NCBI RefSeq assembly: GCF_001465295.1
Contig: NZ_CP011034.1
Coordinates: 3,330,001 to 3,362,000 of the forward strand
Direction of reading: 5' to 3'
Length of the DNA: 32,000 nucleotides
From: Pseudoalteromonas translucida KMM 520
GTDB taxonomy: Bacteria; Pseudomonadota; Gammaproteobacteria; Enterobacterales; Alteromonadaceae
Shown: positions 1,525 through 29,949 of the stretch, one piece after another
Layout: every line of letters begins with the position of its first letter
Numbering within the stretch: position 1 is the stretch's first letter
Translations under genes and position numbers: made by a program
The notes under the pieces: generated by a model
What the model was told of the DNA's origin: nothing
Database searches by the model: none
What the model saw: the letters and a program-made list of their open reading frames with translations, nothing else

Positions 1525-1610
1525 TTAAAAAACAAACTCATTATAATGTTAGGTATAATAGTAATTAGCTCAATTTAAGCTGCTTACTTTCGTATCAATG
1601 GAGTGAGTTT

Positions 1611-2786
1611 ATGAAACTTTATCCGCTAGTGGTAATTACTGTTTTTTCATTAGTAGCTGGCTGCACCGGTACTAACAATCAAAAGCAAATACTGCAAACT
1701 ATACCGCTTACACAAGTAATTAATCATGCTTTATTTAGCCAACAACCCACTTTATCTGAACAAGCTATTTTTGAGCTGTCTGAAGTCGAGACAGAGCAGT
1801 TTTTAGCGTATGCCAAAAAACAGTTATTATCTGGGGTTCGTACCGATAGAGTTGTTTATAATTACCTTGAAAACCAACTAACTAACTTTACATATCACGG
1901 CGATACACTCACTTCCACACAAGCGGTTAATCGAGCGCAAGGAAACTGTATTAGCCTAGCGGTGCTTACCCAAAGCTATGCTCGCATTCTTGGTTTAGAT
2001 ACGAGCTTTCAGGAAATGACCAGCGAGCCTGTTTATGCAAAAGAAAGTAACTTAGTGTATGTAGCTAACCATTTTAGAACTATGGTTTATGCCCCTAAAG
2101 AAGTAGATACCGCTAAAAACATAAATTCAATAAGCGCAATAACAACCCGCGCAGGTACGTTAATAGACTACTTCCCAACTCGAGACAGTGTTTACTCTGG
2201 TAGCGCTAACCATAATGACTTACTCGCTAAGTTTTATAGCAATTTAGCCGCTAGCGCATTAGCAAAAAAACAATTAAACATGGCATATTCTCTTATTTTG
2301 CAAGCTAATAACTACACCCCTAAAGATCCTGAGCTATTTAACTTAGCAGGCATCTTACACCGCCATGCTGGCGACTTACAAAGTGCGAAGAATATTTATC
2401 AAGCAGCATTAAATAACAATTATGCGAGCATTAATTTAATTAGTAACTATCAATTATTAGCTCAAAAGCTTGGTGATACTCAGCTTGCGCAGCAGTTATC
2501 TTTACAACTAATAAATATAGAAAAAGATCCTTATGAGTTATTAGTACTGGCTAAAAACGAGTTACAAACAGGAAATATTTATAGCGCTAACAAGCATGTT
2601 GAGCAAGCAATAGTAAAAGCACCGTATATAGCCGATCTTTATTTAGAGTTGGCTAAAATACGCTTTCAGCAAGGTAAAACTCAACAAACACAAAGCTTGC
2701 TTGAAAAAGCCATCGAACTTGAACGCGACAAACAAAAGCTTAATGTGTATCAAGCTAAGTTACTGTCGTTAAGTATGACAAAGTAA
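1611..2786 (+). CDS. Lipoprotein with a transglutaminase-like Cys/His core and C-terminal TPR repeats
   Basis: It has a signal peptide with lipobox LVAG-C (Cys18). [22 protein letters not shown] followed about 40 residues later by ANHFRTMVY resembles the G-x-C...R..G / H-x-x-x-x-Y core of transglutaminase-like cysteine peptidases. The C-terminal half has TPR-like A/Y/L periodicity (e.g. [25 protein letters not shown] and [27 protein letters not shown]). An RBS (GGAGTGAG) precedes the ATG. Confidence 0.6.
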
Positions 2787-2861: not shown

Positions 2862-5693
2862 TTAAAGCGAATAATAAAAACTTAACCACGCGCGCATTTC
2901 ATCTGCAAAGCTATCGCCTTCTACGCGCGATAAGCCCAAATTAAACGTTAAATCGTTTACACCAGCAGGCCCCACCCCAAAGTTAAAATCACCTTGATAT
3001 TTTAAGCCGTAACTTTGTGCATATACCATGCTATCGAGTTGGTGTTGCTTGTAATAAAGCCAAGGTAACCCCTCTTTAAAGCTAAAACCAGCGCCATAAC
3101 CTTGATAGCGCTTTGCAGTTGCACTGTAAAAAGGCAGCTCGGATGAAAGTACAAATTCGCTACTTTGTTGCTGATTAATCAGGTTTGAACTAAAGCCACC
3201 TAATGCAAGGCTGCCATCATCACGTTGCTTTTGCTCAAGGCTTGCATAAAGAGGAATACCAAACGCTTTACCAAAAATTTTGGCGGCTAAATCGTAACCT
3301 TGCCAATTATTACTTTTGTTGCTGCCATCGTACCAGCTCGCATAAATACTTTGGCCTATTACAAAATCTTGGCGGTCATATTGCCAGCTTTGAGTAACGC
3401 CTAAGCGCGTCCAGTTTTTATGATTTTGCTTGTAGTCAGTGTAATTATAAGCAAGCTCTGGCGTTAAGTTTAACTGGCCAAATTTAAGGGGGTAACTTAT
3501 TGCAGCAAAACCACCGCGCGCAGCAATATCGGCGCTTAAGCCTGTTTGATTTAAGGATTGATATTGGCGTGCTGTATTTAAATTATAATCAAACACGCTG
3601 AGTTTAAACTTTACTGGTAATGCACTGTATTTTGCCTGCACAAAACCACCATGCAAAGCGCCATTGTGCAAGTCGGCGCTATACCCTGCCTGTAAGTCGA
3701 GCTGTTTTAATAAATCGCTACTTTTAATCCCTAAATTCAACAAACTGGTTGCAGCCGAATAATACTGCGCGCCTAGTGCAAAAGTGGCTTGTTGCTCAAG
3801 TGCATTGTAGCTACTTTGGGTGCCTACTTGGTTAGTGTAAATGTTAGCTTTTGGAAGTGTGTGTTGATTAACCATAAGCAGTGGCGCATGTTTAGTGGTT
3901 GCAATATCACTAACCACATTCCCTTGGTGTGCTTTAGGTAGCTGTTTTACATTGGGTCCATCTGCGCTAATCGAGAAATAAAGTAATGAGCCATCAGCTA
4001 TTTCAATAGGATGTGCAACCGCTTCTTGCCCCTGAGTTAGTTTAGTGAGTGTTTTACTTGCAATATGATAACTATAAATATCGGTAGCGCTATTTAAGCC
4101 AGCAATGAAGTAAAGCGACTCTCCATTTTGACTAAAACTTGGTTGGCTTAAATATTGATACCCGTTTGGCATAGCCACTGATTGACGGTGCTCACCATCA
4201 ATATTTTGTATATATAATTGCCAGTTTTCGTTTAAAGACGCTGATAAGTAAGCTAATTTAGTTTCATCAGGGTTTAATATTGGATAGTCATACGCCGTTT
4301 TTAAACTTTTATTAAATAACTCAGTGACGATTTTAGTGGTTAAATCTACTTTCACTAATTCTGAGTAACCACCTCTTACTTGCTCAGCATATAAGGTTTC
4401 ACCATCGCTGGTTACGCTAAAACGGCGAATACCTGCAAGCTCGGTAAGCTGCTCTGTATTGCCAGTTTCAGTGTTGTAGTTAAAAACATCAGAAACACGA
4501 TTATAACTACCCGAGTCCTCAGTACTAAAAGCACTAAAGTAAAGCGTGGTATTGTTAATCCATTGTGGGTTAGCTATGCCTGCTCGATTAATTTGGTTAA
4601 GCACTTGTTTTTGTTCACGCTTAAAAACAGCAGGTGCAGTGTCAGCAATATCTAGGGAATCATTTTCTAATAACTCTTTTTGTGCTTTATTAAAGCTGTT
4701 TTCGGCTTTAGTGTTTTGCTCTGTGCTGTACACAATAAGCTTAGTGTTATCGTTTTTATCACGCTCTACAATTGCCAGCTTACTGCCATCTTTTGCAAGC
4801 GCGGGGTTACTTGCATACAAACCAAGCTGTAGCCACAGCTCACTATTAAGCTTAGGTTCTAATTGCTCTTTGGCCATAGCTTTATAAGTGTATTCAGCTA
4901 CAAAGCGGCGGTACAGTTTAGCGGCACTTTGCCCAAACACACCACTAAATGCTTGATCAAAATTACGTGTTTTAACCGCTTGCATGCGCGTCCAAACGCT
5001 ATCGAGCGTTTGCTCTGTATAGTTTTTCTCTAACCAATTTAAAAAACGGCTACCAATTAAATACGCCATAGAGCTGGCCATAAAGCCACCTTCGGTACTA
5101 TTTAGCTGTGAGTAGCTGGGCAACGCTCCTTGCTGGGCAAACTCTACTAATATTGCTTCTGAGTAGTTATCAAATAAGCGCCCACGACCGGTCATTTTAG
5201 ATTCAATTAACGTGGCATAACCTTCGGCAACCCAACGAGGGGTATCGCTGTAAGTTAAATCGTATAGATCCCATAGACTGCGTATTTTTTGCTGCCAGTT
5301 ATTACGCGTTGGCTGCGCTAAATGCACTAAGTGAATGTACTCGTGCAATACCAATAACTGCTGCCAGCCTGAGGTATTTGATATAACAGTATCTGATTGT
5401 GGCGGCGTGGTAAAAAGTGCCATTATGGGGTTATTTGAAGTAGGTAGCGCAAAACCATTGGCTGCATTTAAGGGATCAAACACCACTACATCTACAATTT
5501 TATCAAGGGCGCGGTTTTGTTGCTCAAGCACTTTAGTACGTACTATTTCAAGCTCTACAGCAGTCGATTTAGCAAAGTCGGTATGCTCAATACTGTAATG
5601 CACATTAAAGTGCTCGGTATGAATGGTTTGCCAGTCGTTACCATAACTCGGCGCGGTAAGTAATAAAGCCGCAGCCATAAGTGTTTTTTTCAT
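2862..5693 (-). CDS. Exported modular protein: N-terminal HExxH (gluzincin-like) peptidase domain, TolB/PD40-like beta-propeller, C-terminal predicted outer-membrane beta-barrel
   Basis: Signal peptide MKKTLMAAALLLTAPSYG. The HEYIH motif is at residues 117-121 (nt 5345-5331, checked by reverse translation), with WVAEGYA 36 residues downstream as a candidate third zinc ligand. The middle part has repeated PD40-like units (DGSKLAIVE.., SDGETLYAEQ.., NPDETKLAYLSA.., SQNGESLYFIAG.., ADGSLLYFSIS). The last ~320 aa are rich in alternating aromatic and small residues (G/Y/S/A) and end WLSFYYSL, which looks like an outer-membrane barrel. Confidence 0.7.
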   Translation of the reverse strand: MKKTLMAAALLLTAPSYGNDWQTIHTEHFNVHYSIEHTDFAKSTAVELEIVRTKVLEQQNRALDKIVDVVVFDPLNAANGFALPTSNNPIMALFTTPPQSDTVISNTSGWQQLLVLHEYIHLVHLAQPTRNNWQQKIRSLWDLYDLTYSDTPRWVAEGYATLIESKMTGRGRLFDNYSEAILVEFAQQGALPSYSQLNSTEGGFMASSMAYLIGSRFLNWLEKNYTEQTLDSVWTRMQAVKTRNFDQAFSGVFGQSAAKLYRRFVAEYTYKAMAKEQLEPKLNSELWLQLGLYASNPALAKDGSKLAIVERDKNDNTKLIVYSTEQNTKAENSFNKAQKELLENDSLDIADTAPAVFKREQKQVLNQINRAGIANPQWINNTTLYFSAFSTEDSGSYNRVSDVFNYNTETGNTEQLTELAGIRRFSVTSDGETLYAEQVRGGYSELVKVDLTTKIVTELFNKSLKTAYDYPILNPDETKLAYLSASLNENWQLYIQNIDGEHRQSVAMPNGYQYLSQPSFSQNGESLYFIAGLNSATDIYSYHIASKTLTKLTQGQEAVAHPIEIADGSLLYFSISADGPNVKQLPKAHQGNVVSDIATTKHAPLLMVNQHTLPKANIYTNQVGTQSSYNALEQQATFALGAQYYSAATSLLNLGIKSSDLLKQLDLQAGYSADLHNGALHGGFVQAKYSALPVKFKLSVFDYNLNTARQYQSLNQTGLSADIAARGGFAAISYPLKFGQLNLTPELAYNYTDYKQNHKNWTRLGVTQSWQYDRQDFVIGQSIYASWYDGSNKSNNWQGYDLAAKIFGKAFGIPLYASLEQKQRDDGSLALGGFSSNLINQQQSSEFVLSSELPFYSATAKRYQGYGAGFSFKEGLPWLYYKQHQLDSMVYAQSYGLKYQGDFNFGVGPAGVNDLTFNLGLSRVEGDSFADEMRAWLSFYYSL

Positions 5694-5811: not shown

Positions 5812-7347
5812 CTACATCCAACTACGGGGATCAGATTCAACCTGCATAAGTATAAAATCAATTATAAAGTCAGCATCTTGCTGCTTTATATAGGGCATAA
5901 AAGCGTAACCTGAGGCGAGTTGTATACACACACTTTTTAACCCTGAGCGACGCATTAAGTAGGTACTTATACTACGGGCACTTTGTGTTTTATACAGCTC
6001 AAACACCCGATAATGTACGCCAATCAAGCCTTTGCGCACCACCATATAATACCGGCCATTATCTTCATGTAAGTAATAGCCATAACGCTGATATGACAAG
6101 GTAACTAAACCTGCAAACGCAACAAACACACCTAAACTAAGCCACATATTAAATTCAGCTACTAAGCAAAAAATGAATACTAATATGCTCGGTAAAAGCG
6201 CATAAAACACCAAGTTTTTATATAGTAGTGCGCGCTCTGCGCCTGTAAATGCGAGGTTTTTGCTATTAAACCAAGGATAAATCCATTGGCAAACACTGTT
6301 TACTTGTGCCGCGTTTAATACCGGTAAGAGCAAGGTTTGTTTATTATTTTTAGCAGCAACGCCTGCTACCATACCGCCACTACTCGCTTGCAAACATTCA
6401 ACGGTAAAGCGTTTTAATAGTCGGGCAACTAAGTTTTGTTTTATAACAATTGATTGCACCTTATCTAAGCTCATAGATAACTGATGGCGCTCTAATAAAC
6501 CGGCAATGCGTTTAAATTTTTGTCCTTTAAAATACAGCTCGTAGTTATAAAACCGAATCAACGACATGCCAACCGACAACAACACCGCAATAATAACCAA
6601 CAAAACAATTAAGGTGATCACCGCAAACATGGCAGCATTGGCCATTATACCTAGCTCTTGCTGGTAAAAGCCCTCCATTTTAGCAATCAGCTTTTGTTCT
6701 AAAAAGTCGATAACAACATTTATAAATGGCGCAATAGCTGCAAAGGCTAAAATAGCCATGTTTGATATTAAACCAAACTTAGCAATTTCTTTGTTGCTAA
6801 TAAATAGACTGCTTTGTGCCGCTAATTGGTGATCTACATTGTCAGTTACTGTATCTTGCTGCTGGGCTTTGTATGCAAAAATTTGTTTACGCATTTGTTG
6901 TGCGTGTTCTTTGGTTATTCCCGGCAGTACCACTTCTTGCGCTACGCTACCAGCGGCATCAAAAATACAATTTACTAAGTTAATAGGGGTAAAATAAAAC
7001 GGCTCAGCAATATTTACGTTTTGTACGCGAGCAAATTTAAGGGTTAAACGCTCTTTTTTAAATACGCCTTTTTTAAGTAATATTTCGTGCTCTTCAGAAA
7101 TACAAAAACGAAAGCTTTTATAATATAAAAAAGAGTAAATAAGCAAAGCAACAAGCGCGACTGCTCCGGCAATTTGCCCCCAAAATAGTTTGTTTTCAAC
7201 TTGAGTTACAAACACAATAGTAATAGGTAGCAAATTAAAGATGCCATCTCTTATAATTCGCACCGTAAAATGGACAACAAAATACACTAACGCCCAAGGC
7301 GATACAGCTTGCCAATGTAAATTACTTGCGCTACCAGCGTTACTCAT
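5812..7347 (-). CDS. YdbT-like membrane protein with three bacterial PH (bPH_2 / DUF304) modules
   Basis: This is track ORF 5812-7398. I prefer the ATG at 7347 (MSNAGSASNLHWQ..), which overlaps the upstream stop by 8 nt (ATGAGTAA). Three copies of the bPH_2 pattern each follow a TM hairpin: KKGVFKKERLTLKFARVQNVNI.., FKRIAGLLERHQLSMSLDKVQSIVI.., VRKGLIGVHYRVFELYKTQSARSI... Confidence 0.75.
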   Translation of the reverse strand: MSNAGSASNLHWQAVSPWALVYFVVHFTVRIIRDGIFNLLPITIVFVTQVENKLFWGQIAGAVALVALLIYSFLYYKSFRFCISEEHEILLKKGVFKKERLTLKFARVQNVNIAEPFYFTPINLVNCIFDAAGSVAQEVVLPGITKEHAQQMRKQIFAYKAQQQDTVTDNVDHQLAAQSSLFISNKEIAKFGLISNMAILAFAAIAPFINVVIDFLEQKLIAKMEGFYQQELGIMANAAMFAVITLIVLLVIIAVLLSVGMSLIRFYNYELYFKGQKFKRIAGLLERHQLSMSLDKVQSIVIKQNLVARLLKRFTVECLQASSGGMVAGVAAKNNKQTLLLPVLNAAQVNSVCQWIYPWFNSKNLAFTGAERALLYKNLVFYALLPSILVFIFCLVAEFNMWLSLGVFVAFAGLVTLSYQRYGYYLHEDNGRYYMVVRKGLIGVHYRVFELYKTQSARSISTYLMRRSGLKSVCIQLASGYAFMPYIKQQDADFIIDFILMQVESDPRSWM

Positions 7348-7894
7348 CTGCAGGGGTTGCTTGTGCGATGTTGTCGTCGTTGCGGTAGTTTTGTACAAAC
7401 TGGCGCATATTTTTACAATCGTCGTGAGTTAAGCCGCTAATTTGCAGGTCGGCGCTCATGCCACCAGCGCTATATAGCTTTAAACTCGCTAAGCCGAGTT
7501 TGCGCTCAATTGGCCCGCGGTGCACTTCAATATGCTGTACTCGCGCCAGCGGTAAAATAACAATTTGCTGCCAAATAATTCCCTTTTTAAACGCGATATC
7601 GTGGGTACGCATTGCTACCCCTTGCAGCTTTATACTCACTACATTATAAAGTATTGATAATATGATAATTATTGGCATGCCAATCAACAAATACGTTTGC
7701 GCTAGATTAGCAAAAGCGGCATTTAAGTAACACGCCACCACTAAGCCGATAATTAAAGGAATATAAAACGCCAGCCAATTAAGTTGCACATGCAGCAAAG
7801 CGTTAGCCCCCAACGGCTTAAACTCAATATTACTATGTTGTGGTAAGTTGGTTATTTGTTGATTATTAAACACCATATTATTGCTTAAACTCAC
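7340..7894 (-). CDS. YdbS-like membrane protein with a single bacterial PH (bPH_2) domain
   Basis: Two TM helices are followed by KKGIIWQQIVILPLARVQHIEVHRGPIERKLGLASLKLYSAGG, the hallmark bPH_2 segment. The start at 7894 is a GTG, and an ATG at 7876 (MVFNNQQ..) is an equally plausible start. Confidence 0.75.
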   Translation of the reverse strand: MSLSNNMVFNNQQITNLPQHSNIEFKPLGANALLHVQLNWLAFYIPLIIGLVVACYLNAAFANLAQTYLLIGMPIIIILSILYNVVSIKLQGVAMRTHDIAFKKGIIWQQIVILPLARVQHIEVHRGPIERKLGLASLKLYSAGGMSADLQISGLTHDDCKNMRQFVQNYRNDDNIAQATPADE

Positions 7895-7915
7895 TCTTAC
7901 TTATAAATACAAGGC

Positions 7916-9762: not shown

Positions 9763-11082
9763 ATGACTAAACTTTCGAAATTAACACTTGCCCTCATGCT
9801 AGCTGGTGCGTCGAGCAATGTATTCGCCGCAGATCTAGACACGCTTCAAACTCAGCTTAAGCAACTTAAACAGCAAATGCAGATGCTAGAGCAGCAATTA
9901 GCTGCTGAAAAAACCAAACAACAGAAAATTAATGAGCAACACGAACAACAAGTTGCTCAAATAAGTAAAAAAGCGGAACAAACAACTGTGGTTGCTGCCA
10001 CTAAAGCTGAAGAAAAAGAATCTGCTGGTATAACCGTAGGTGGTGCTATTCGTACTAACTACAGTGTTACCTCGTATAGTGAAGGTAATGAAGACCGCCT
10101 TGGTGACTTTGATTTTGATATTTTTCGTTTAAACCTCTCAGGTGAAGTTGGTGGTGTACTTTTAGGCGGTGAAATTCGCTTTTTTGATTACATGACCGTT
10201 ATAAAATCAGCGTGGGCTGGTTATCAACTTAATGATGAGTGGCAAGTGCAAGCAGGTATTACTAAAGTACCATTTGGTAACGACCCGTATAACTCACATA
10301 ATTACTTTTTTAGTACTAACTATTATATTGGCCTAGAGGATGATCACGATCTAGGTATTATGTTTAAACGTAAAGTTAGCGATAACTGGCAGCTAGACCT
10401 TGGCTTTTTCAAAAATGATGAACTTGGTGGTGTTGACGGTTATGTAGAAGATCGTAGCCATCGTTATTCGTACGATATTGTTGGAAGCCGCCCTGTCGGT
10501 GAAGGTATTTACGCAGAGCCTGCAAAACAGCTTGGCGAATACAACACCTTTACCGGTCGTTTTGCCTATCATTTTGAACACGGCGAAGGCATAACCACTG
10601 AAGTAGGTATTTCAGCACTTGCGGGTGGCTTACATGATGGGACCGATCGTGCGGGTGATTACAATGCTTGGGCACTGCACTTAAATAGCCATATTAATAA
10701 CTGGAATATTCAACTACAACACGGTGAGTATAACTACAATGTTGATAATATAGATCGCATGGCTGTAGGCGCATACGGGTTTTATGATTCAATTGCCGCC
10801 GATGCTACTACCAGTACCTTTAACGTAGCATATAGCGTACCAGTACAATGGGGACCGGTAAGCAACCTACAGTTTTATAACGACTACGGTATTATTTACA
10901 ATAAATCAGACAACAGCGCAAATACCTGGATGAACGTAACGGGTGTATCGGTTGCCGCCGGAGGACTATTTACTTACATCGATTATGTACATGCGCGTAA
11001 TCAGCCATTTGTAGGCGGTTCTATCGCGGGTAACGGCGAAACAGAAAGCCGCTTTAATATTAACCTTGGTTATTACTTTTAA
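9763..11082 (+). CDS. Outer-membrane porin with an N-terminal periplasmic coiled coil (DcaP-like architecture)
   Basis: This is track ORF 9718-11082. I prefer the ATG at 9763, which gives the signal peptide MTKLSKLTLALMLAGASSNVFA. It is followed by a ~50-aa heptad-rich Q/K/E segment (DLDTLQTQLKQLKQQMQMLEQQLAAEKTKQQK..). After that comes G/Y/N/D-rich beta-strand sequence ending in the classic OMP terminus LGYYF. Confidence 0.7.
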   Translation: MTKLSKLTLALMLAGASSNVFAADLDTLQTQLKQLKQQMQMLEQQLAAEKTKQQKINEQHEQQVAQISKKAEQTTVVAATKAEEKESAGITVGGAIRTNYSVTSYSEGNEDRLGDFDFDIFRLNLSGEVGGVLLGGEIRFFDYMTVIKSAWAGYQLNDEWQVQAGITKVPFGNDPYNSHNYFFSTNYYIGLEDDHDLGIMFKRKVSDNWQLDLGFFKNDELGGVDGYVEDRSHRYSYDIVGSRPVGEGIYAEPAKQLGEYNTFTGRFAYHFEHGEGITTEVGISALAGGLHDGTDRAGDYNAWALHLNSHINNWNIQLQHGEYNYNVDNIDRMAVGAYGFYDSIAADATTSTFNVAYSVPVQWGPVSNLQFYNDYGIIYNKSDNSANTWMNVTGVSVAAGGLFTYIDYVHARNQPFVGGSIAGNGETESRFNINLGYYF

Positions 11083-11120
11083 GCCAAGTAAGTTAATTAG
11101 CTAGTTAATTAGTTACTTAT

Positions 11121-11146
11121 AAAGGGCAACATTGTTTGCCCTTTTT
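11121..11146 (+). terminator. Rho-independent terminator after the porin gene
   Basis: AAAGGGCAA-cattgt-TTGCCCTTT (9-bp stem) runs into a T tract. Confidence 0.8.
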
Positions 11147-11267
11147 GCTGCGCTAATTTTATTTACCCCTTTTATTGCCCACGTATTAAGTAACTGCAAT
11201 TGCGCTTAAATTGCGGCATTAATTACTCTATAATCAAACTAACTATAATTTAATAAAACTCACCTAA

Positions 11268-11663
11268 GTGGATATAAAAACAACCTATATATATTACAAA
11301 AAGGTATGGTTTAAAGTGCTTGGCTTAATGCTAGTGGTGCTTGGAATTATAGGTATAGTACTGCCGGTTATGCCCACCACCATCTTTTTTATTTTAGCTC
11401 TGGCCTGCTTTACCCGCTCATCTCCTGCACTTGAGCATTGGCTTTTAAATCACCCACGATACGGCACTACGCTGCAACAGTGGCAAGCACATAAAGTAAT
11501 GCCTGTTAAAGCCAAATATTGCGCTGCCCTTGGCATGCTGGTGGGTTTTATATTTTTACTGGCTTCATCTCCTGCTGTTTGGGTTATTCTTTTAGTTGCT
11601 ATAATTGAAGTAGCCGTAATGATTTATTTAATTTTAAGGCCCTCGTCCGTACCAAAAAGTTGA
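11268..11663 (+). CDS. ybaN: DUF454 inner-membrane protein YbaN
   Basis: LGIIGIVLPVMPTTIFFILALACFTRSSPALEHWLLNHPRYG parallels E. coli YbaN ([36 protein letters not shown]). The start is a GTG and there is no in-frame ATG before the first TM helix. Confidence 0.8.
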   Translation: MDIKTTYIYYKKVWFKVLGLMLVVLGIIGIVLPVMPTTIFFILALACFTRSSPALEHWLLNHPRYGTTLQQWQAHKVMPVKAKYCAALGMLVGFIFLLASSPAVWVILLVAIIEVAVMIYLILRPSSVPKS

Positions 11664-21590: not shown

Positions 21591-21715
21591 TTATTTGTAA
21601 GTACCACGTTGTTATTAGTAATAATCCTGCGCGTTATCCTCAGTTATATGCTTGTTTTCTCCCTGTTAAATTGCCTATTTTAAGGCACACTTTTATTAAT
21701 TCTTAGGATACTATT
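21591..21715 (+). promoter_or_regulatory. Long conserved csp 5' UTR, copy 1 (candidate cold-responsive leader)
   Basis: TTATTTGTAAGTACCACGTTGTTATTAGTAATAATCCTGCGCGTTATCCTCA and ...AGGCACACTTTTATTAATTCTTAGGATAC are repeated almost verbatim upstream of the second csp gene. Confidence 0.6.
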
Positions 21716-21925
21716 ATGTCTAATACTACAACTGGTACAGTAAAATTTTTTAACGAAGCAAAAGGTTTTGGCTTTATCGAGCAAGAATCTGGCGCAGACG
21801 TTTTTGCACATTTCAGTGCAATTTCAGGCGACGGTTTCAAAACTTTAGCTGAAGGCCAACGTGTACAGTTTACTGTTACTCAAGGTCAAAAAGGCCCACA
21901 AGCCGAAAACATTGTTTGCATCTAA
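21716..21925 (+). CDS. cspA: Cold-shock protein (CspA family), copy 1
   Basis: 69 aa. It has RNP1 KGFGFI and RNP2 VFAHF, and the canonical [15 protein letters not shown] start. Confidence 0.95.
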
Positions 21926-21939
21926 TTGCATAACAATTT

Positions 21940-21961
21940 AATGGGTTAGCAATAACCCATT
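21940..21961 (+). terminator. Stem-loop after csp copy 1 (weak terminator or RNA-stabilising hairpin)
   Basis: AATGGGTTA-gcaa-TAACCCATT is a perfect 9-bp stem, but no U tract follows. Read-through into copy 2 is plausible. Confidence 0.4.
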
Positions 21962-21990
21962 TAGAATACTAGTTTGAAAGAAGTTCTGTT

Positions 21991-22112
21991 TTATTTGTTA
22001 GTACCCCGTTGTTTTAGTAATAATCCTACGCGTTATCCTCAAGTTAACTATTTTTTCCGGCTCAATCGCCTCTTTTCAGGCACACTTATATTAATTTTTT
22101 AGGATACATATT
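21991..22112 (+). promoter_or_regulatory. Long conserved csp 5' UTR, copy 2
   Basis: TTATTTGTTAGTACCCCGTTGTTTTAGTAATAATCCTACGCGTTATCCTCAA and ...AGGCACACTTATATTAATTTTTTAGGATAC are about 90% identical by eye to copy 1 across the two conserved blocks. A TAGAAT hexamer lies at 21962-21967. Confidence 0.6.
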
Positions 22113-22322
22113 ATGTCTAATACAACTACTGGTTCAGTAAAATGGTTTAACGAAGCAAAAGGTTTTGGCTTTATCGAGCAAGAATCTGGCGCAGACGTTT
22201 TTGCACATTTTAGTGCTATTGTTAGCGACGGTTTCAAAACTTTAGCTGAAGGCCAACGTGTACAGTTTACTGTTACTCAAGGTCAAAAAGGCCCACAAGC
22301 CGAAAACATTGTTTGTATATAA
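22113..22322 (+). CDS. cspA: Cold-shock protein (CspA family), copy 2
   Basis: 69 aa, identical to copy 1 at 65 of 69 residues (T8S, F11W, S37V, G38S). Confidence 0.95.
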
Positions 22323-25329: not shown

Positions 25330-26634
25330 TTACTTAGATTTACCTCGCCAACCAGCCCAAACATCGTCTTCAAGATCTGCTTTTTTGTTCTTTTTCTTGC
25401 CTGTGCCTTCGGGTTTTGCCATTGGCTTTTCGTTTTTAAGCGCCTGTGCAGCATCAATATTCGCTTGGTTCACTGCAAAGCCTGCCACTTGCTCGCGCTC
25501 AAGACGTAGTTTATTTTTCTTCTCAATTATTTTAAAGTGATGCAAATCTTCATAATCAACTAATGAAAGCGCTAAACCCACTTCACCTGCACGGCCGCTG
25601 CGGCCAATACGGTGCATATAATCAGCAGGGCTGCGTGGCAGGTTAAAGTTTATTACCACTGGCAGCTTTTCAATATCTAAACCACGTGCTGCAATATCAG
25701 TTGCTATTAGCACTTCAATTTCGCCTGCTTTAAACTTTTCGATTACCCGGGTACGTTCACTTTGGCCTTTATCGCCATGAAACACTTGCGCGTTAACACC
25801 ACGTTTTTCAAGCTTTTGCGCTAAGTGTTCACAATCTTTTTTAGCATTAACAAAAATAAGTGCTTGGCGCCATTTATGGGTTTTAATTAAATGCGCTAAA
25901 ACAGTAGTTTTCTCGCCTTTATTAACGCTAAACACACGCTGTACTAACGTGCTTTCGTCTTTGCTTTGAACTTGTATTTCAACAGGGTCGTTTAATAAAT
26001 CTTGTGTTAATAGCTTAACTTGCTCTGGGAAAGTGGCTGAAAATAACATAGTTTGTTTTTTAGCAGGCATTAACGCTAATAACTCAGCAAGCTCTTCGGT
26101 AAAGCCAAGGCTTAGCATACGGTCGGCTTCATCAAGCACGAGTGTACTTAGTTTATCTAGCTTAATAGCATTGCTTGAGATTAAATCGAGTAAGCGACCT
26201 GGTGTTGCTACTATAATATCAGTGCCACCACGAAGAGCCTGCATTTGTGTATTAACCGATACACCACCAAACACAGCAACCGTTTTAATTGCACCATTAA
26301 AGTTAGCAGAATACGATTTAACGCTATCGGCTACTTGCGTAGCAAGCTCACGAGTAGGTACTAAAATAAGCCCTGTAACAAAGTTACCTTTGCTCGCTGT
26401 GCTTTTACTACCTTGCTCAAGGAACATTTTTTGTAGCATTGGCAGCGCAAACGTTGCTGTTTTACCAGAGCCCGTATTTGCCCCAGCAATTAAATCACTG
26501 CCCGCAAGCACACTAGGTATAGCCTTAGCTTGAATTGGCGTAGGCTGGGTATATTCCAAATCGGTTAAACGAGCTAATAGCTCTGGAATAAGGCCAAGTT
26601 CGTTAAAAGTGCTAGGGCTTGTGGCTGAGGTCAT
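25330..26634 (-). CDS. rhlE: DEAD-box ATP-dependent RNA helicase (RhlE-like)
   Basis: It has the Q motif FNELGL...PTPIQ, motif I ANTGSGKT, motif Ia PTRELA, motif II VLDEADRML, motif III SAT, motif VI HRIGRSGRAG, and a short basic tail KKKNKK. Confidence 0.9.
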   Translation of the reverse strand: MTSATSPSTFNELGLIPELLARLTDLEYTQPTPIQAKAIPSVLAGSDLIAGANTGSGKTATFALPMLQKMFLEQGSKSTASKGNFVTGLILVPTRELATQVADSVKSYSANFNGAIKTVAVFGGVSVNTQMQALRGGTDIIVATPGRLLDLISSNAIKLDKLSTLVLDEADRMLSLGFTEELAELLALMPAKKQTMLFSATFPEQVKLLTQDLLNDPVEIQVQSKDESTLVQRVFSVNKGEKTTVLAHLIKTHKWRQALIFVNAKKDCEHLAQKLEKRGVNAQVFHGDKGQSERTRVIEKFKAGEIEVLIATDIAARGLDIEKLPVVINFNLPRSPADYMHRIGRSGRAGEVGLALSLVDYEDLHHFKIIEKKNKLRLEREQVAGFAVNQANIDAAQALKNEKPMAKPEGTGKKKNKKADLEDDVWAGWRGKSK

Positions 26635-26733: not shown

Positions 26734-26760
26734 AAAAAAAGACGCTTTCGCGTCTTTTTT
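26734..26760 (-). terminator. Strong symmetric terminator, probably the ancestral glmS terminator
   Basis: AAAAAAAGACGC-tttc-GCGTCTTTTTT lies 22 nt beyond the stop codon of the orphan glmS 3' fragment. It insulates the helicase gene from upstream minus-strand transcription. Confidence 0.85.
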
Positions 26761-26782
26761 ATCTTATAACACTAACTTATTG

Positions 26783-26854
26783 TTATTCAACAGTAACCGA
26801 TTTAGCCAGGTTACGTGGTTGGTCAACGTCTGTGCCTTTAATTACCGCTACGTA
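26783..26854 (-). pseudogene. glmS: Orphan copy of the last 23 codons plus stop of glmS (left direct repeat)
   Basis: The minus strand reads [23 protein letters not shown]-stop. It is 69/72 nt identical to 28129-28200. Mismatches at 26804, 26807 and 26809 are all synonymous. No upstream glmS sequence is attached. Confidence 0.9.
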
Positions 26855-26860
26855 CATGTA

Positions 26861-27940
26861 CTAGCTATGGGCTATAAGTAATTTATACAACGGATCGTTA
26901 ATATAATAGTTAGCACGACCAATTTTTTGTTTAGTTAAAAAACCATGCTCAACCAACTGCTCTAAATACTTAGTAGCAGTAATACGGGATACGCCTAGCT
27001 CTTCCACTATAAATTCTATTTTGGTGTAAGGGTGATTAAATAAATTATTGAGCAAATCTTGGCTATATATTTTAGGTAGTTTTTCACGTATACCGTGTTT
27101 CACTTCAGCCATAGTACTTTTCATTTGAGTAATGAGTGAGATGGTATTTTGTGCGGTATCAATGATACCGTCGAGCATAAATAATAGCCAAGCTTCCCAG
27201 TTTCCTGTTTCTCTTACTGCTTGCAAATTACTGTAGTAGTCGGCTTTATGGTGAATAATAAAGCGACTTAAATATAATACAGGCAAGTTAAGTAGCTCTT
27301 TGGTCACTAAATACAAAATATTTATTATACGCCCAGTCCGTCCATTGCCATCATAAAATGGATGAATACTTTCAAACTGGTGGTGAATAATAGCCATTTT
27401 AACCAGTGGATCAGCGTCACACAGTGAATCGTCATTGATGTAGGTGATGAGGTTAGCCATTAATTTTGCTATTTCTTCAGCGTGTTGTGGTGGTGTATAA
27501 ACGATCTCGCCTGTACTGGCATTTTTTAAATCTGTACCTGGGAGTTTTCGCAGTCCTGCATTATTATGCTCTAGGTTTTTTTGTATTAACAAGATGTCAC
27601 TTAAGCGCAGTAACTTATTTTTGCGTGCCGTATTAAAGCCTTGCTTTAAAGCAAAGGCATAGTCTTGCACTTCCTTCGTGGCTGGATTGGTAATAGCTTC
27701 TTCAAATAAGCTCGCTTTGTAAAGCTCGTCATGTGTGGTGACAATATTCTCTACCTCTGAGCTGTCTTTTGCCTCTTGTAGCGACAGGGTATTTATTAAA
27801 ATGGCTTCATTTGGAATACTGGCCGCAACGCCTTTTAGTTCGGCAAGATAACGGTGAGCTTCAGCTGTTTTTTTTAGTACTGCGCGGGTTTCCCACTTTT
27901 CAATATTATTTAGTGGAAGCTGTTTAACACTTGCTGACAT
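26861..27940 (-). CDS. Fic-domain protein, class II (N-terminal inhibitory helix), SoFic-like AMPylase with a C-terminal winged-helix domain
   Basis: The Fic motif HPFYDGNGRTGR is at nt 27364-27329 (reverse-translated and checked). The inhibitory motif SSEVEN, fitting [ST]xxxE[GN], is at 27763-27746 within EAKDSSEVENIVTT. The C-terminal segment VEELGVSRITATKYLEQLVEHGFLTKQKIGR looks like a wHTH. I prefer the ATG at 27940 (MSASVKQLPL..) to the track start at 28048, whose extra 36 residues are AT-rich promoter sequence. Confidence 0.85.
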   Translation of the reverse strand: MSASVKQLPLNNIEKWETRAVLKKTAEAHRYLAELKGVAASIPNEAILINTLSLQEAKDSSEVENIVTTHDELYKASLFEEAITNPATKEVQDYAFALKQGFNTARKNKLLRLSDILLIQKNLEHNNAGLRKLPGTDLKNASTGEIVYTPPQHAEEIAKLMANLITYINDDSLCDADPLVKMAIIHHQFESIHPFYDGNGRTGRIINILYLVTKELLNLPVLYLSRFIIHHKADYYSNLQAVRETGNWEAWLLFMLDGIIDTAQNTISLITQMKSTMAEVKHGIREKLPKIYSQDLLNNLFNHPYTKIEFIVEELGVSRITATKYLEQLVEHGFLTKQKIGRANYYINDPLYKLLIAHS

Positions 27941-28048
27941 GTATAAATAACGCCTTTTTGTAGGTATAAATTTTTTATATGTATAAATAATTGCAAAAAT
28001 TATACATGAAGCCTTAGTTATGTATAGATTTTCTATTTTATTATACAT
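27939..28048 (-). promoter_or_regulatory. Repeat-dense AT-rich Fic promoter region (six GTATA-core heptamer copies, two embedded TATAAT boxes)
   Basis: The plus strand has ATGTATAAATAA at 27939-27950 and 27979-27990, GTATAAA at 27964-27970, TGTATAG at 28021-28027, and the inverted TTATACAT at 28000-28007 and 28041-28048. Minus-strand TATAAT boxes lie at 28004-27999 and 28045-28040. Confidence 0.4.
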
Positions 28049-28066
28049 ATATTTCTAATTACACAT

Positions 28067-28101
28067 AAAAAAACGGCTACATGTTGCTGTAGCCGTTTTT
28101 T
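28067..28101 (-). terminator. Rho-independent terminator now serving glmS (carried on the insert)
   Basis: AAAAAAACGGCTAC-atgttgct-GTAGCCGTTTTTT is symmetric with an 8-bp GC-containing stem. It lies 28 nt after the glmS stop. Confidence 0.8.
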
Positions 28102-28128
28102 GCTTTCTACTTTAAAATTAAAAGCTAA

Positions 28129-28200
28129 TTATTCAACAGTAACCGATTTTGCTAAGTTACGTGGTTGGTCAACGTCTGTGCCTTTAATTACCGCTACGTA
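28129..28200 (-). repeat. glmS: Right direct repeat: the functional 3' end of glmS
   Basis: It is identical to 26783-26854 except at 28150, 28153 and 28155, and it is contiguous with the rest of glmS. Confidence 0.9.
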
Positions 28201-29949
28201 GTACGACAGTAGCTGTAATGGTAAAGTATAAACAATTGGCGCAATAATATCGTCAGTGTGATTTACGTTGATAACACGCATGGTGGTGTCTGATTCAAAG
28301 TGAGAATCTTTATCTGCGAATACGTAAATAATACCGCCACGCGCCCGTACTTCTTCTACGTTCGATTTAAGCTTTTCGAGCAATTCGTTATTGGGGGCAA
28401 CCACAATAATTGGCATGTCGGCGTCAATTAGTGCCAGTGGACCATGTTTAAGCTCGCCTGCAGCGTAGGCTTCTGCGTGAATGTACGAAATTTCTTTAAG
28501 CTTAAGCGCGCCTTCCATTGCAATTGGGTATTGCGAACCACGGCCTAAAAATAGTGAATGTTGCTTATCGGCAAACTCTTCTGCTAACTCGGCAATGCTA
28601 TCTGCAAGCTGTAAAGTTTCTTCTAATTTTGCAGGAAGTACTTTAATTGCATTAACAATTGCGCTTTGATCAAGGCCTTTTTCTTGTGCTATAGACGCAG
28701 TAAGCATTAACAAACCAACTAATTGCGTAGTAAACGCTTTAGTAGATGCTACGCCAATTTCGGCGCCGGCTTTGGTCATAAAGGCAAGGTCTGATTCGCG
28801 TACAAGCGATGAGCCAGGTACGTTACAAATGGTCATTGAAGCCATGTAACCTTGTTGCTTTGCTAAACGCAGTGCAGCAAGTGTATCGGCAGTTTCACCT
28901 GATTGTGAAATAGTTACTAGGAGGCTTTTTTCGTGTACAAACGACTGGCGGTAGCGAAATTCTGAGGCAATTTCTACATTACAGCTTACGCCTGCAAATT
29001 GCTCAAGCCAGTAACGTGCAACCATACCCGAATGGTAAGACGTACCACAGGCAATAATTTGTACGTGTTTTACATCTTTAAATATTTGTTGTGCACTGTC
29101 GCCAAAAGCGTCAATTGCTACGCGATCGTTGTTTAAACGCCCTTCAAGGGTATTACGTACAGCAAGTGGCTGCTCGTAAATTTCTTTTAGCATGTAGTGA
29201 CGGTAGTCGCCTTTACCTGATGCATCTTGCGTAATGTTTGATTCAACCACTTCACGCTCTACAGCGTTGCCATCGGCATCAAAAATTTCTACTGTGTCAC
29301 GTGTAATACGTGCTACGTCGCCTTCTTCTAAAAATATAAAGCTGCGAGTAACCGGTAGTAGTGCCAATTGATCAGAGGCAATAAAGTTTTCGCCAAGCCC
29401 TAAACCTATAACAAGTGGGCTGCCTGAGCGCGCTACAATAATTTCGTTGCTGTTGTCTTTATCAAATACAACGGTACCAAATGCGCCTTCAAATTGCTTA
29501 ACGGCAGCTTGTACTGATGCGAGCAAGGTTTTGTGCTGCTGACGAAGCTGGTGAATTAAGTGCACCATAACTTCTGTGTCGGTGTCTGATAAAAATTCGT
29601 AACCGTCGCCTTTTAATGCGGCGCGCAAGCTTACGTGATTTTCAATAATACCATTGTGTACTAGTGCTAGTTGGCCGCTTGACACATGTGGGTGTGCATT
29701 GGCTTCAGTTACACTACCGTGAGTAGCCCAGCGAGTGTGTGCAATACCTGTATGGCCGCTAACACCTGATTGCTCAAGTGCCGACTCTAGGTTTACTACT
29801 TTACCAACTGCTTTTACAGTTTTAAGGGTGTTGCCATCAAGCAGTGCTACGCCTGCTGAATCGTAACCACGGTATTCTAGGCGTTTAAGGCCTTCAACTA
29901 AAATTTTATTTACTGGACGTTCTGCAACTGCCCCAACTATTCCACACAT
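28129..29949 (-). CDS. glmS: Glutamine--fructose-6-phosphate aminotransferase (isomerising)
   Basis: MCGIVGAV has the N-terminal nucleophile Cys after Met. The protein has two SIS domains and the invariant C-terminus [18 protein letters not shown]. It is 606 aa. Confidence 0.97.

Follow-up and report, generated by a model that had tools for sequence, protein, structure and literature searches.

How did a single gene come to lie between two copies of the 3' end of glmS? The question is raised by a 32,000-nucleotide stretch of Pseudoalteromonas translucida KMM 520 (contig NZ_CP011034.1, 3,330,001-3,362,000; hereafter the window, in whose own positions coordinates are given), where direct repeats of the glmS tail bracket a short segment that carries one Fic gene. 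We found that this segment is an insert in the spacer between glmS and a helicase gene, that its cargo belongs by sequence to the SoFic family of phage-defence proteins, and that the spacer is a variable defence hotspot. The insertion behind glmS most likely reflects ordinary recombination at this hotspot rather than a new kind of mobile element.

The two repeats (26783-26854 and 28129-28200) are identical at 69 of 72 positions and are offset by 1346 bp; a 72-nt match at 96% identity is not expected by chance in this region (blastn E about 1e-29 to 1e-31). Relatives for comparison were retrieved by looking up exact matches to the neighbouring 86-aa DUF3297 protein; this gave ten loci of about 96.5-97.3% nucleotide identity, while exact-protein look-ups of the window's SoFic, glmS, DeoR and hexapeptide transferase products returned no match. 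Four related genomes (L088, L090, L091 and L097) have empty sites, in which a single glmS tail is followed by the helicase gene after 149 bp. The left flank of the window aligns to these genomes up to 26854 and the right flank from 28129. Because the two flanks overlap on exactly 72 bp of the empty-site sequence, an insertion with duplication is proven: compared to the empty sites, the window contains a 1,274-bp insert plus a 72-bp duplication. In a G+C profile along the window, the insert is clearly set off from its surroundings (0.28-0.38 compared to 0.42-0.46 in the flanks). The DNA beyond the orphan copy is native empty-site sequence, including the terminator, a hairpin with a T-run that begins 22 nt past the orphan.

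A sequence-only reading of this stretch had anticipated much of this anatomy. It had given the coordinates, identity and offset of the repeats; had taken the right copy to be the true 3' end of glmS and the left copy to be an orphan that still reads 23 protein letters and then a stop; had called the three mismatches synonymous; and had placed the Fic stop codon 6 nt from the orphan. These points hold on the sequence itself, where the glmS stop lies at 28129-28131 of a 606-aa gene, the codons of both copies can be compared, and the Fic stop occupies 26861-26863. The same reading had proposed an insertion at the glmS 3' end that left glmS intact, a new terminator supplied by the insert, and an original glmS terminator at 26734-26760. 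The alignments to the four related genomes establish the first of these and show that empty sites exist in which the 26734-26760 terminator stands directly after the glmS stop; the new terminator is visible as a hairpin and T-run at 28068-28101.

The differences between the two copies are informative about their origin. The intact copy reads TTA GCA where the orphan reads CTG GCT, so that 3/3 differences are synonymous, for which the probability is about 0.015 if three changes fell at random. Moreover, the repeat boundary coincides exactly with the glmS stop codon. Both codon versions occur naturally in the genus: P. issachenkonii (L188) and strain A601 (L009) also have the TTA GCA AAA TCG allele, and the CTG GCT version is a natural glmS allele in two other loci (L011 and L012). 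The earlier suggestion that the copies are two glmS alleles is therefore plausible, by a homology-driven joining that was either Campbell-like or one-ended. When the variant codons were checked against the alleles of relatives, the orphan was found to have CTG and 7/7 closest relatives TTA; both window copies share TCG, and close relatives have TCT. A 24-codon mini open reading frame (ORF) is also predicted at 26783-26857 on the minus strand, where an ATG at the junction, 3 nt past the SoFic stop, is in frame with the orphan tail (TAG TAC ATG|TAC GTA...). If this mini-ORF were translated, selection on it would be an alternative reason for the synonymous-only differences.

The cargo gene was identified by several matches. 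Pfam assigns Fic_N, Fic and SoFic-like_C domains (E 7e-26, 3.5e-18 and 9e-26, respectively), the PADLOC SoFic model matches residues 7-355 at 1.1e-116, and SoFic chains in the PDB match at about 1e-80 (3eqx and 3zcn) and 3e-87 (9vjc). The translation was searched for the catalytic pattern HxFx(D/E)GNGRxxR and the N-terminal inhibitory pattern (S/T)xxxE(G/N), and contains both, as HPFYDGNGRTGR for the former and SSEVEN, in the inhibitory helix, for the latter. The score against the NCBIfam equivalog model NF046030 (377 bits) falls below its 550-bit cut-off, and by sequence the cargo is a relative of Shewanella oneidensis SoFic in a diverged clade, not an equivalog. Among 5.8 billion proteins, PTRA_a3563 of P. 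translucida KMM 520 matches the translation at 100% identity, and the next relative at 87%. SoFic is a toxic, single-gene, abortive-infection defence protein (PMC12249575). Judged by these matches, the insert carries an anti-phage system of a known single-gene kind, the SoFic type, predicted to cause abortive infection by AMPylation. The sequence-only reading had correctly taken the Fic gene to be the sole gene of the insert; it had missed both the SoFic defence identity and the general defence hotspot. The RptR regulator (PMC12255303) was set aside as a different protein.

Upstream of the SoFic gene, positions 27939-28066 hold four exact and three near TTATACAT/ATGTATAA boxes, arranged in inverted pairs that overlap the -35 (TATACA) and -10 (TATAAT) elements of a promoter predicted at 28026-27999. 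These four are the only exact TTATACAT sites in the 32-kb window, and all fall within 27939-28048. This layout implies that the four-box array is likely an operator, possibly bound by the C-terminal winged-helix domain of SoFic itself; as such, the array offers a direct candidate DNA target for that domain.

We compared about 88 loci that encode relatives of the window SoFic. In about 40 of the 88, including one on a conjugative Vibrio vulnificus plasmid, the gene lies between hsdR and hsdM of a type I restriction-modification (RM) operon; in these RM-embedded loci (L002-L006, many of L098-L160, and L178), hsdS and an AAA_15/21 ATPase gene often follow. The remaining loci are solo copies, some of which retain fragments of hsdR or hsdM. 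An upstream module of roughly 115 nt with four ATGTATAA/TTATACAT boxes accompanies SoFic in all contexts, in unrelated genera as well as in type I RM operons. Significant flanking direct repeats were found at nine solo loci, counting the window with its 72 nt, and at no RM-embedded locus (Table 1). As in the window, an intact gene copy stands opposite an orphan fragment across the SoFic gene in L173, L156 and L176, and the repeats are the ends of whichever gene adjoins: the 3' end of umuC, the 5' end of a GIY-YIG-like gene, and others. The interpretable repeats (L001, L173 and L156) all span the terminal codon of the neighbouring gene, extending 25-72 nt into it and 0-19 nt outside, which fits a homology anchor inside the gene. 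A second Pantoea cypripedii strain (L182, reverse complement of 3745-4000) has at the same site as L001 a decayed SoFic remnant, reduced to promoter boxes and about 50 nt at the end of the ORF, together with a degenerate orphan umuC tail, and thus is not a true empty site. This remnant implies that the Pantoea insertion is old, and the Pantoea loci do not settle the mechanism.

The site itself is occupied differently from strain to strain. In the relatives, whose helicase gene lies at 10345-11649 (L088-L097), the space between glmS and the helicase gene is either empty or filled with unrelated cargo, much of it of defence type, such as toxin/immunity genes, a KAP NTPase, DarTG or type I RM (Table 1), and the variable DNA extends from directly past the glmS stop to about 75-97 nt upstream of the helicase start. 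Thus, we conclude that in the P. translucida/haloplanktis group the spacer between these two genes is a defence hotspot whose content varies among strains. None of the other cargoes at this site, five of them in close relatives, is accompanied by an orphan glmS tail, a recombinase or mobility genes. In more distant species an esterase gene stands between glmS and the helicase gene, and the empty arrangement of the translucida/haloplanktis group is possibly itself derived.

Table 1. Features of the glmS-helicase region in the window, repeats flanking solo SoFic copies in other genomes, and cargo in the same spacer of relatives
Locus	Feature	Position	Strand	Evidence or remark
Window	glmS, glutamine-fructose-6-phosphate aminotransferase, intact, 606 aa	28129..29949	-	ORF; Pfam GATase_6/7 and two SIS domains; 97% nt identity to relatives
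Window	Right repeat copy: functional glmS tail, last 23 codons and stop	28129..28200	-	Variant codons TTA GCA AAA TCG
Window	Divergent glmS patch	28336..28411	-	12 differences in 76 nt compared to all close relatives (background about 2-3 per 100 nt)
Window	1,274-bp insert: spacer, terminator, operator/promoter, SoFic gene, 6 nt	26855..28128	-	Missing from empty-site relatives; flank alignments; low G+C
Window	Insert-borne intrinsic terminator, now ending the glmS transcript	28068..28101	-	Scan; begins 27 nt past stop; fold -24.2 kcal/mol, z -5.75
Window	SoFic upstream module: four TTATACAT/ATGTATAA boxes in inverted pairs; sigma-70-like promoter	27941..28060	-	Inverted-repeat and promoter scans
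Window	SoFic-type Fic AMP-transferase gene, 359 aa, full length	26861..27940	-	Pfam, PADLOC and PDB matches
Window	Junction hexamer TACATG between SoFic stop and orphan; presumed illegitimate joint	26855..26860	-	Read from sequence
Window	Left repeat copy: displaced orphan glmS tail, contiguous with native downstream DNA	26783..26854	-	Variant codons CTG GCT AAA TCG
Window	Native glmS terminator of empty-site type, now behind SoFic gene	26734..26760	-	Same sequence after glmS stop in L088/L090/L091/L097; fold -18 kcal/mol, z -5.6
Window	DEAD-box RNA helicase gene, right-hand core gene of hotspot	25330..26634	-	Pfam DEAD and Helicase_C; adjoins glmS or variable cargo in relatives
L001, Pantoea cypripedii	SoFic-flanking repeat, 32 nt, 100%	5827-5858 / 7093-7124		Last 7 codons, stop and 7 nt of convergent umuC
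L173	SoFic-flanking repeat, 48 nt, 88%	351-398 / 1593-1640		Begins 1 nt before ATG of downstream gene
L156	SoFic-flanking repeat, 57-59 nt, 98%	3573-3631 / 5421-5479		19 nt leader and 13 codons of divergent gene
L176	SoFic-flanking repeat, 68 nt, 88%	145-212 / 3519-3586		Less clear
L175	SoFic-flanking repeat, 27 nt			Less clear
L130, L166, L108	SoFic-flanking repeats			Less clear
L096	glmS-helicase cargo			KAP NTPase
L094, L092	glmS-helicase cargo			HigB/M78, UvrD, DarT-NADAR (DarTG with HigB)
L093	glmS-helicase cargo			RhuM and type I RM system
L095 (strain TAC125)	glmS-helicase cargo			Dynamin-like, FtsK/DUF87, colicin-DNase/WHH and SUKH genes
L187, L188, L008 (more distant species)	Esterase gene between glmS and helicase gene	6672-7862 (L187); 6716-7906 (L188)

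We next consider whether the insert is a dedicated mobile element. The glmS 3' end is recognised by the TnsD protein of Tn7, which inserts about 25 bp downstream of the stop codon, makes a 5-bp duplication, and carries TnsB-binding terminal repeats and tns genes. A Tn7-like transposon was rejected on both gene content and structure: tnsA/B/C/D and tniQ are absent, the Fic ORF is the only ORF of the insert, and the neighbours are glmS, a DeoR regulator and the helicase; furthermore, the insert follows the stop codon with no intervening base, the duplication is 72 bp long, and terminal inverted repeats are lacking. The window and Tn7 at attTn7 therefore share a neighbourhood and the placement of cargo behind glmS, and differ in position, duplication length, ends and genes. 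No recombinase, terminal inverted repeats or tns genes were found in or near the insert, in agreement with what the sequence-only reading had reported for Tn7-like ends, tns genes and recombinases. An integron cassette or an Xer/dif module was also considered, and inspection by eye only revealed no obvious attC-like or dif-like site.

The sequence-only reading had gone further and proposed a circular element that carried its own glmS tail as attP. One half of that proposal survives, in that a homology-driven event, Campbell-like or one-ended, is plausible; site-specific att integration is unsupported. Its suggestion of an att-flanked, cis-mobilisable family or a decayed island targeting glmS is not supported, since we found no conserved attP, no recombinase and no comparable locus, and the larger recombinase-bearing islands that it proposed to look for at the same site were not among the other cargoes of relatives. 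Among the matches listed, a second glmS tail was found at 0/16 other Pseudoalteromonas loci and 0/74 other gammaproteobacterial glmS loci; the matches listed by the glmS scan of the genome collection included at least 6 Pseudoalteromonas loci.

The explanation that we favour, and to which we give about an even chance, is a homology-driven arrival of donor DNA that carried its own glmS tail and was closed by one illegitimate joint. The SoFic module would already have stood directly behind glmS in another Pseudoalteromonas-like genome, and the incoming fragment would have started with the glmS tail of that donor. This tail would have paired with the resident glmS of an empty-site recipient in ordinary, RecA-type homologous recombination, and the far end of the fragment, 6 nt past the SoFic stop, would have been joined illegitimately to glmS position -72. 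The event could have taken either of two routes, namely one-ended homology-facilitated illegitimate recombination (HFIR) of a linear fragment or Campbell insertion of a circularised fragment. Either would leave glmS intact with a new terminator, push the old 72-bp tail and the native terminator downstream, and make a dedicated recombinase unnecessary. Both the route and the donor are what we infer from the structure of the locus. The boundary of the repeat is consistent with such an event: all hotspot variants in relatives lose homology directly past the glmS stop, and two homologous alleles would therefore stop matching exactly where the repeat ends. In addition, the orphan is contiguous with ancestral downstream DNA, as its match to the empty-site relatives indicates, and the start of the insert, with its spacer and terminator, is laid out like other Pseudoalteromonas glmS 3' untranslated regions (UTRs). 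The varied cargo of relatives also marks this site as a hotspot of recombination.

Several observations weigh against this homology-driven arrival. The sequence similarity of the first 75-89 nt of the insert to other glmS 3' UTRs is weak or marginal (z 3.4-3.9 compared to a simple shuffle), and we do not rely on it. No donor arrangement, with glmS(TTA GCA)-TTAGCTTTT...terminator-SoFic and no orphan, was present among the loci fetched, to which the listed matches of the genome collection contributed few from Pseudoalteromonas. The closest SoFic is only 87% identical, and none of about 87 other SoFic loci lies near glmS. That 87% relative (P0002) sits in a PLD-helicase island; the terminator sequence is absent from viral contigs, in which only relatives of 55-56% identity occur; and in Escherichia coli genomes the sole match was one of 105 bp to a distant fic gene. 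A linear one-ended event predicts the resident allele in the orphan, yet the orphan has CTG where relatives have TTA, which can be reconciled only with a Campbell crossover within the last 21 nt, 3' of the variant sites, or with a later mutation. The TCG codon common to both copies also fits a duplication made in place. Moreover, the scheme requires that SoFic had already come to lie behind glmS in the donor, by an earlier step that it does not explain. Finally, GTAC/TAC is present on both sides of the joint, where the hexamer TACATG and the first TAC of the orphan form the palindrome GTACATGTAC, and microhomology can be assessed there only with donor sequence.

The duplication could instead have been made in place, if the insertion process copied a long and variable stretch of target and the three differences arose later, for example as a widely staggered double-strand break was repaired by fill-in or through a replication template switch that restarted 72 bp behind its exit point. 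Such a single-step mechanism would cover every case without a pre-existing donor for each site, including the solo SoFic copies of unrelated genomes that are bracketed by repeats differing in length and sequence (L001, L156, L175 and L173); it would account for TCG in both window copies as opposed to TCT in close relatives, and three differences in 72 nt match the background divergence of 3%. Nevertheless, we consider it unlikely. The boundary exactly at the glmS stop would be a coincidence that we estimate at roughly 1 in 70-150, and a parsimonious history places two changes (TTA to CTG) in the unconstrained orphan, where both would be synonymous only by chance (P about 0.06-0.13). Wherever the repeats at other loci can be interpreted, they take in a gene terminus and are never wholly intergenic, and the module lacks both terminal inverted repeats and conserved ends. 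To our knowledge, no bacterial mechanism yields target duplications of 27-72 bp. A bolder form of the same idea, which we regard as improbable, is that the SoFic promoter-gene module is a recombinase-less mobile defence cassette that left type I RM operons and duplicates 27-72 bp of its target; one possibility is that such a cassette is captured at widely staggered breaks made by type I restriction enzymes, or moves by an unknown route. If this were true, the duplicated gene ends in Pseudoalteromonas, Pantoea and several metagenomic genomes would be target-site duplications of a new kind, made by a new mobility mechanism. Less probable than duplication in place, although a little less doubtful than such a cassette, is the site-specific integration of a small element or island remnant whose attP was a glmS tail and whose tyrosine or serine recombinase lay elsewhere or was deleted. 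Integrase-mediated islands typically show direct repeats of a gene 3' end, with only synonymous differences in the element sequence that restores the gene, and the local anatomy of the window, with its 72-bp flanking repeats taken from the target, fits that pattern. However, no recombinase is present in the insert or in the examined part of the 32-kb window, no second glmS tail lies within 10 kb in 80 other genomes among the matches listed, and other cargoes at the site come without orphan tail or recombinase. Loss of an integrase by deletion would also require a deletion endpoint exactly at the boundary of the repeat. Furthermore, the same module occurs elsewhere with unrelated repeats or none, which is incompatible with a conserved attP. 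By contrast, a false duplication produced by assembly or sequencing hardly deserves weight: there are three differences between the copies, their flanks are unique and sensible and are each matched by independent genomes, and the source record is a 3.39-Mb contig. We therefore favour homology-driven arrival from a donor, at about even odds, over the unlikely in-place duplication because of the stop-codon boundary, the synonymous-only changes, the existence of both alleles in nature, the UTR-like layout and the gene-terminus repeats at other loci; more complex histories take up the remaining weight.

Other features of the region touch the insertion less directly. The only Rfam match in the region is a sub-threshold hit to isrK at 26735-26814 on the minus strand (26.9 bits compared to a gathering score of 50; E 0.003); it takes in part of the orphan tail along with the native terminator, which is probably all that it detects. 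Within glmS, the divergent patch at 28336-28411 had no match among the other species fetched and may be a recombination mosaic; it looks like a short imported tract. At about 21591-22322, internal repeats of the window correspond to tandem genes for 69-aa cold-shock-domain proteins, whose copy number is 2-4 among close relatives (L088-L097, 5937-7337). One relative (L089, 10565-16329) has a second variable island between the DUF3297 and helicase genes, with RhuM, DUF2357/PDDEXK_7, a McrB-like MrcB_N protein and an HTH protein, which suggests another hotspot a few kb away.

The locus is a natural example of a one-gene phage defence that entered a chromosome without a mobility gene, while the essential gene that it adjoins was kept through a replacement tail and terminator. 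It also defines the glmS-helicase spacer as a defence hotspot in a group that includes the model strain TAC125. The most interesting by-product is the recurrence of duplicated gene ends around solo SoFic copies. Should a wider survey uphold this pattern, one-ended recombination may turn out to be a common route, overlooked so far, by which defence genes spread.

Each component of the locus resembles a system that is already known. The cargo shares with SoFic of the S. oneidensis type, as defined in PADLOC and DefenseFinder, the Fic_N and Fic domains and the SoFic-like C-terminal winged helix, as well as the catalytic HPFYDGNGR and inhibitory-helix SxxxEN motifs. The usual home of its clade is the hsdR-hsdM gap of type I RM operons, whereas the window copy is solo. 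A 47-aa AS1-like antitoxin gene has been reported downstream of E. coli SoFic (PMC12249575); in the window there is none downstream, only the 24-codon orphan mini-ORF. As in defence-island hotspots between core genes, interchangeable cargo or none lies between fixed boundaries; compared to the other occupants of the glmS-helicase spacer, which look like clean replacements by flanking homology, only the window insertion left a duplicated gene tail. Integrase-borne islands and cis-mobilisable elements in gene 3' ends likewise show direct repeats of the gene tail and a gene restored by import, and differ in having an integrase in cis, related elements at the site and a conserved attP, none of which was found for the window insert.

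The closest parallel is the displacement of 3' ends in Rhs, CDI (contact-dependent growth inhibition) and type VI secretion system (T6SS) effector-immunity loci, where orphan 3' ends have been attributed to HFIR (PMC5361080, citing de Vries & Wackernagel 2002 and Prudhomme 2002). There, as proposed here, a shared upstream anchor allows a new 3' end and its cargo to be brought in while the old 3' end is pushed downstream, with no recombinase involved; the mechanism is deduced in both cases. In the window, by contrast, the tail of an essential housekeeping gene is the anchor, the displaced piece is only 72 bp long and identical in protein, and a defence gene takes the place of a toxin tip as cargo. 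Thus, the cargo family, the behaviour of the hotspot and the displacement of an orphan tail are each of an already known kind.

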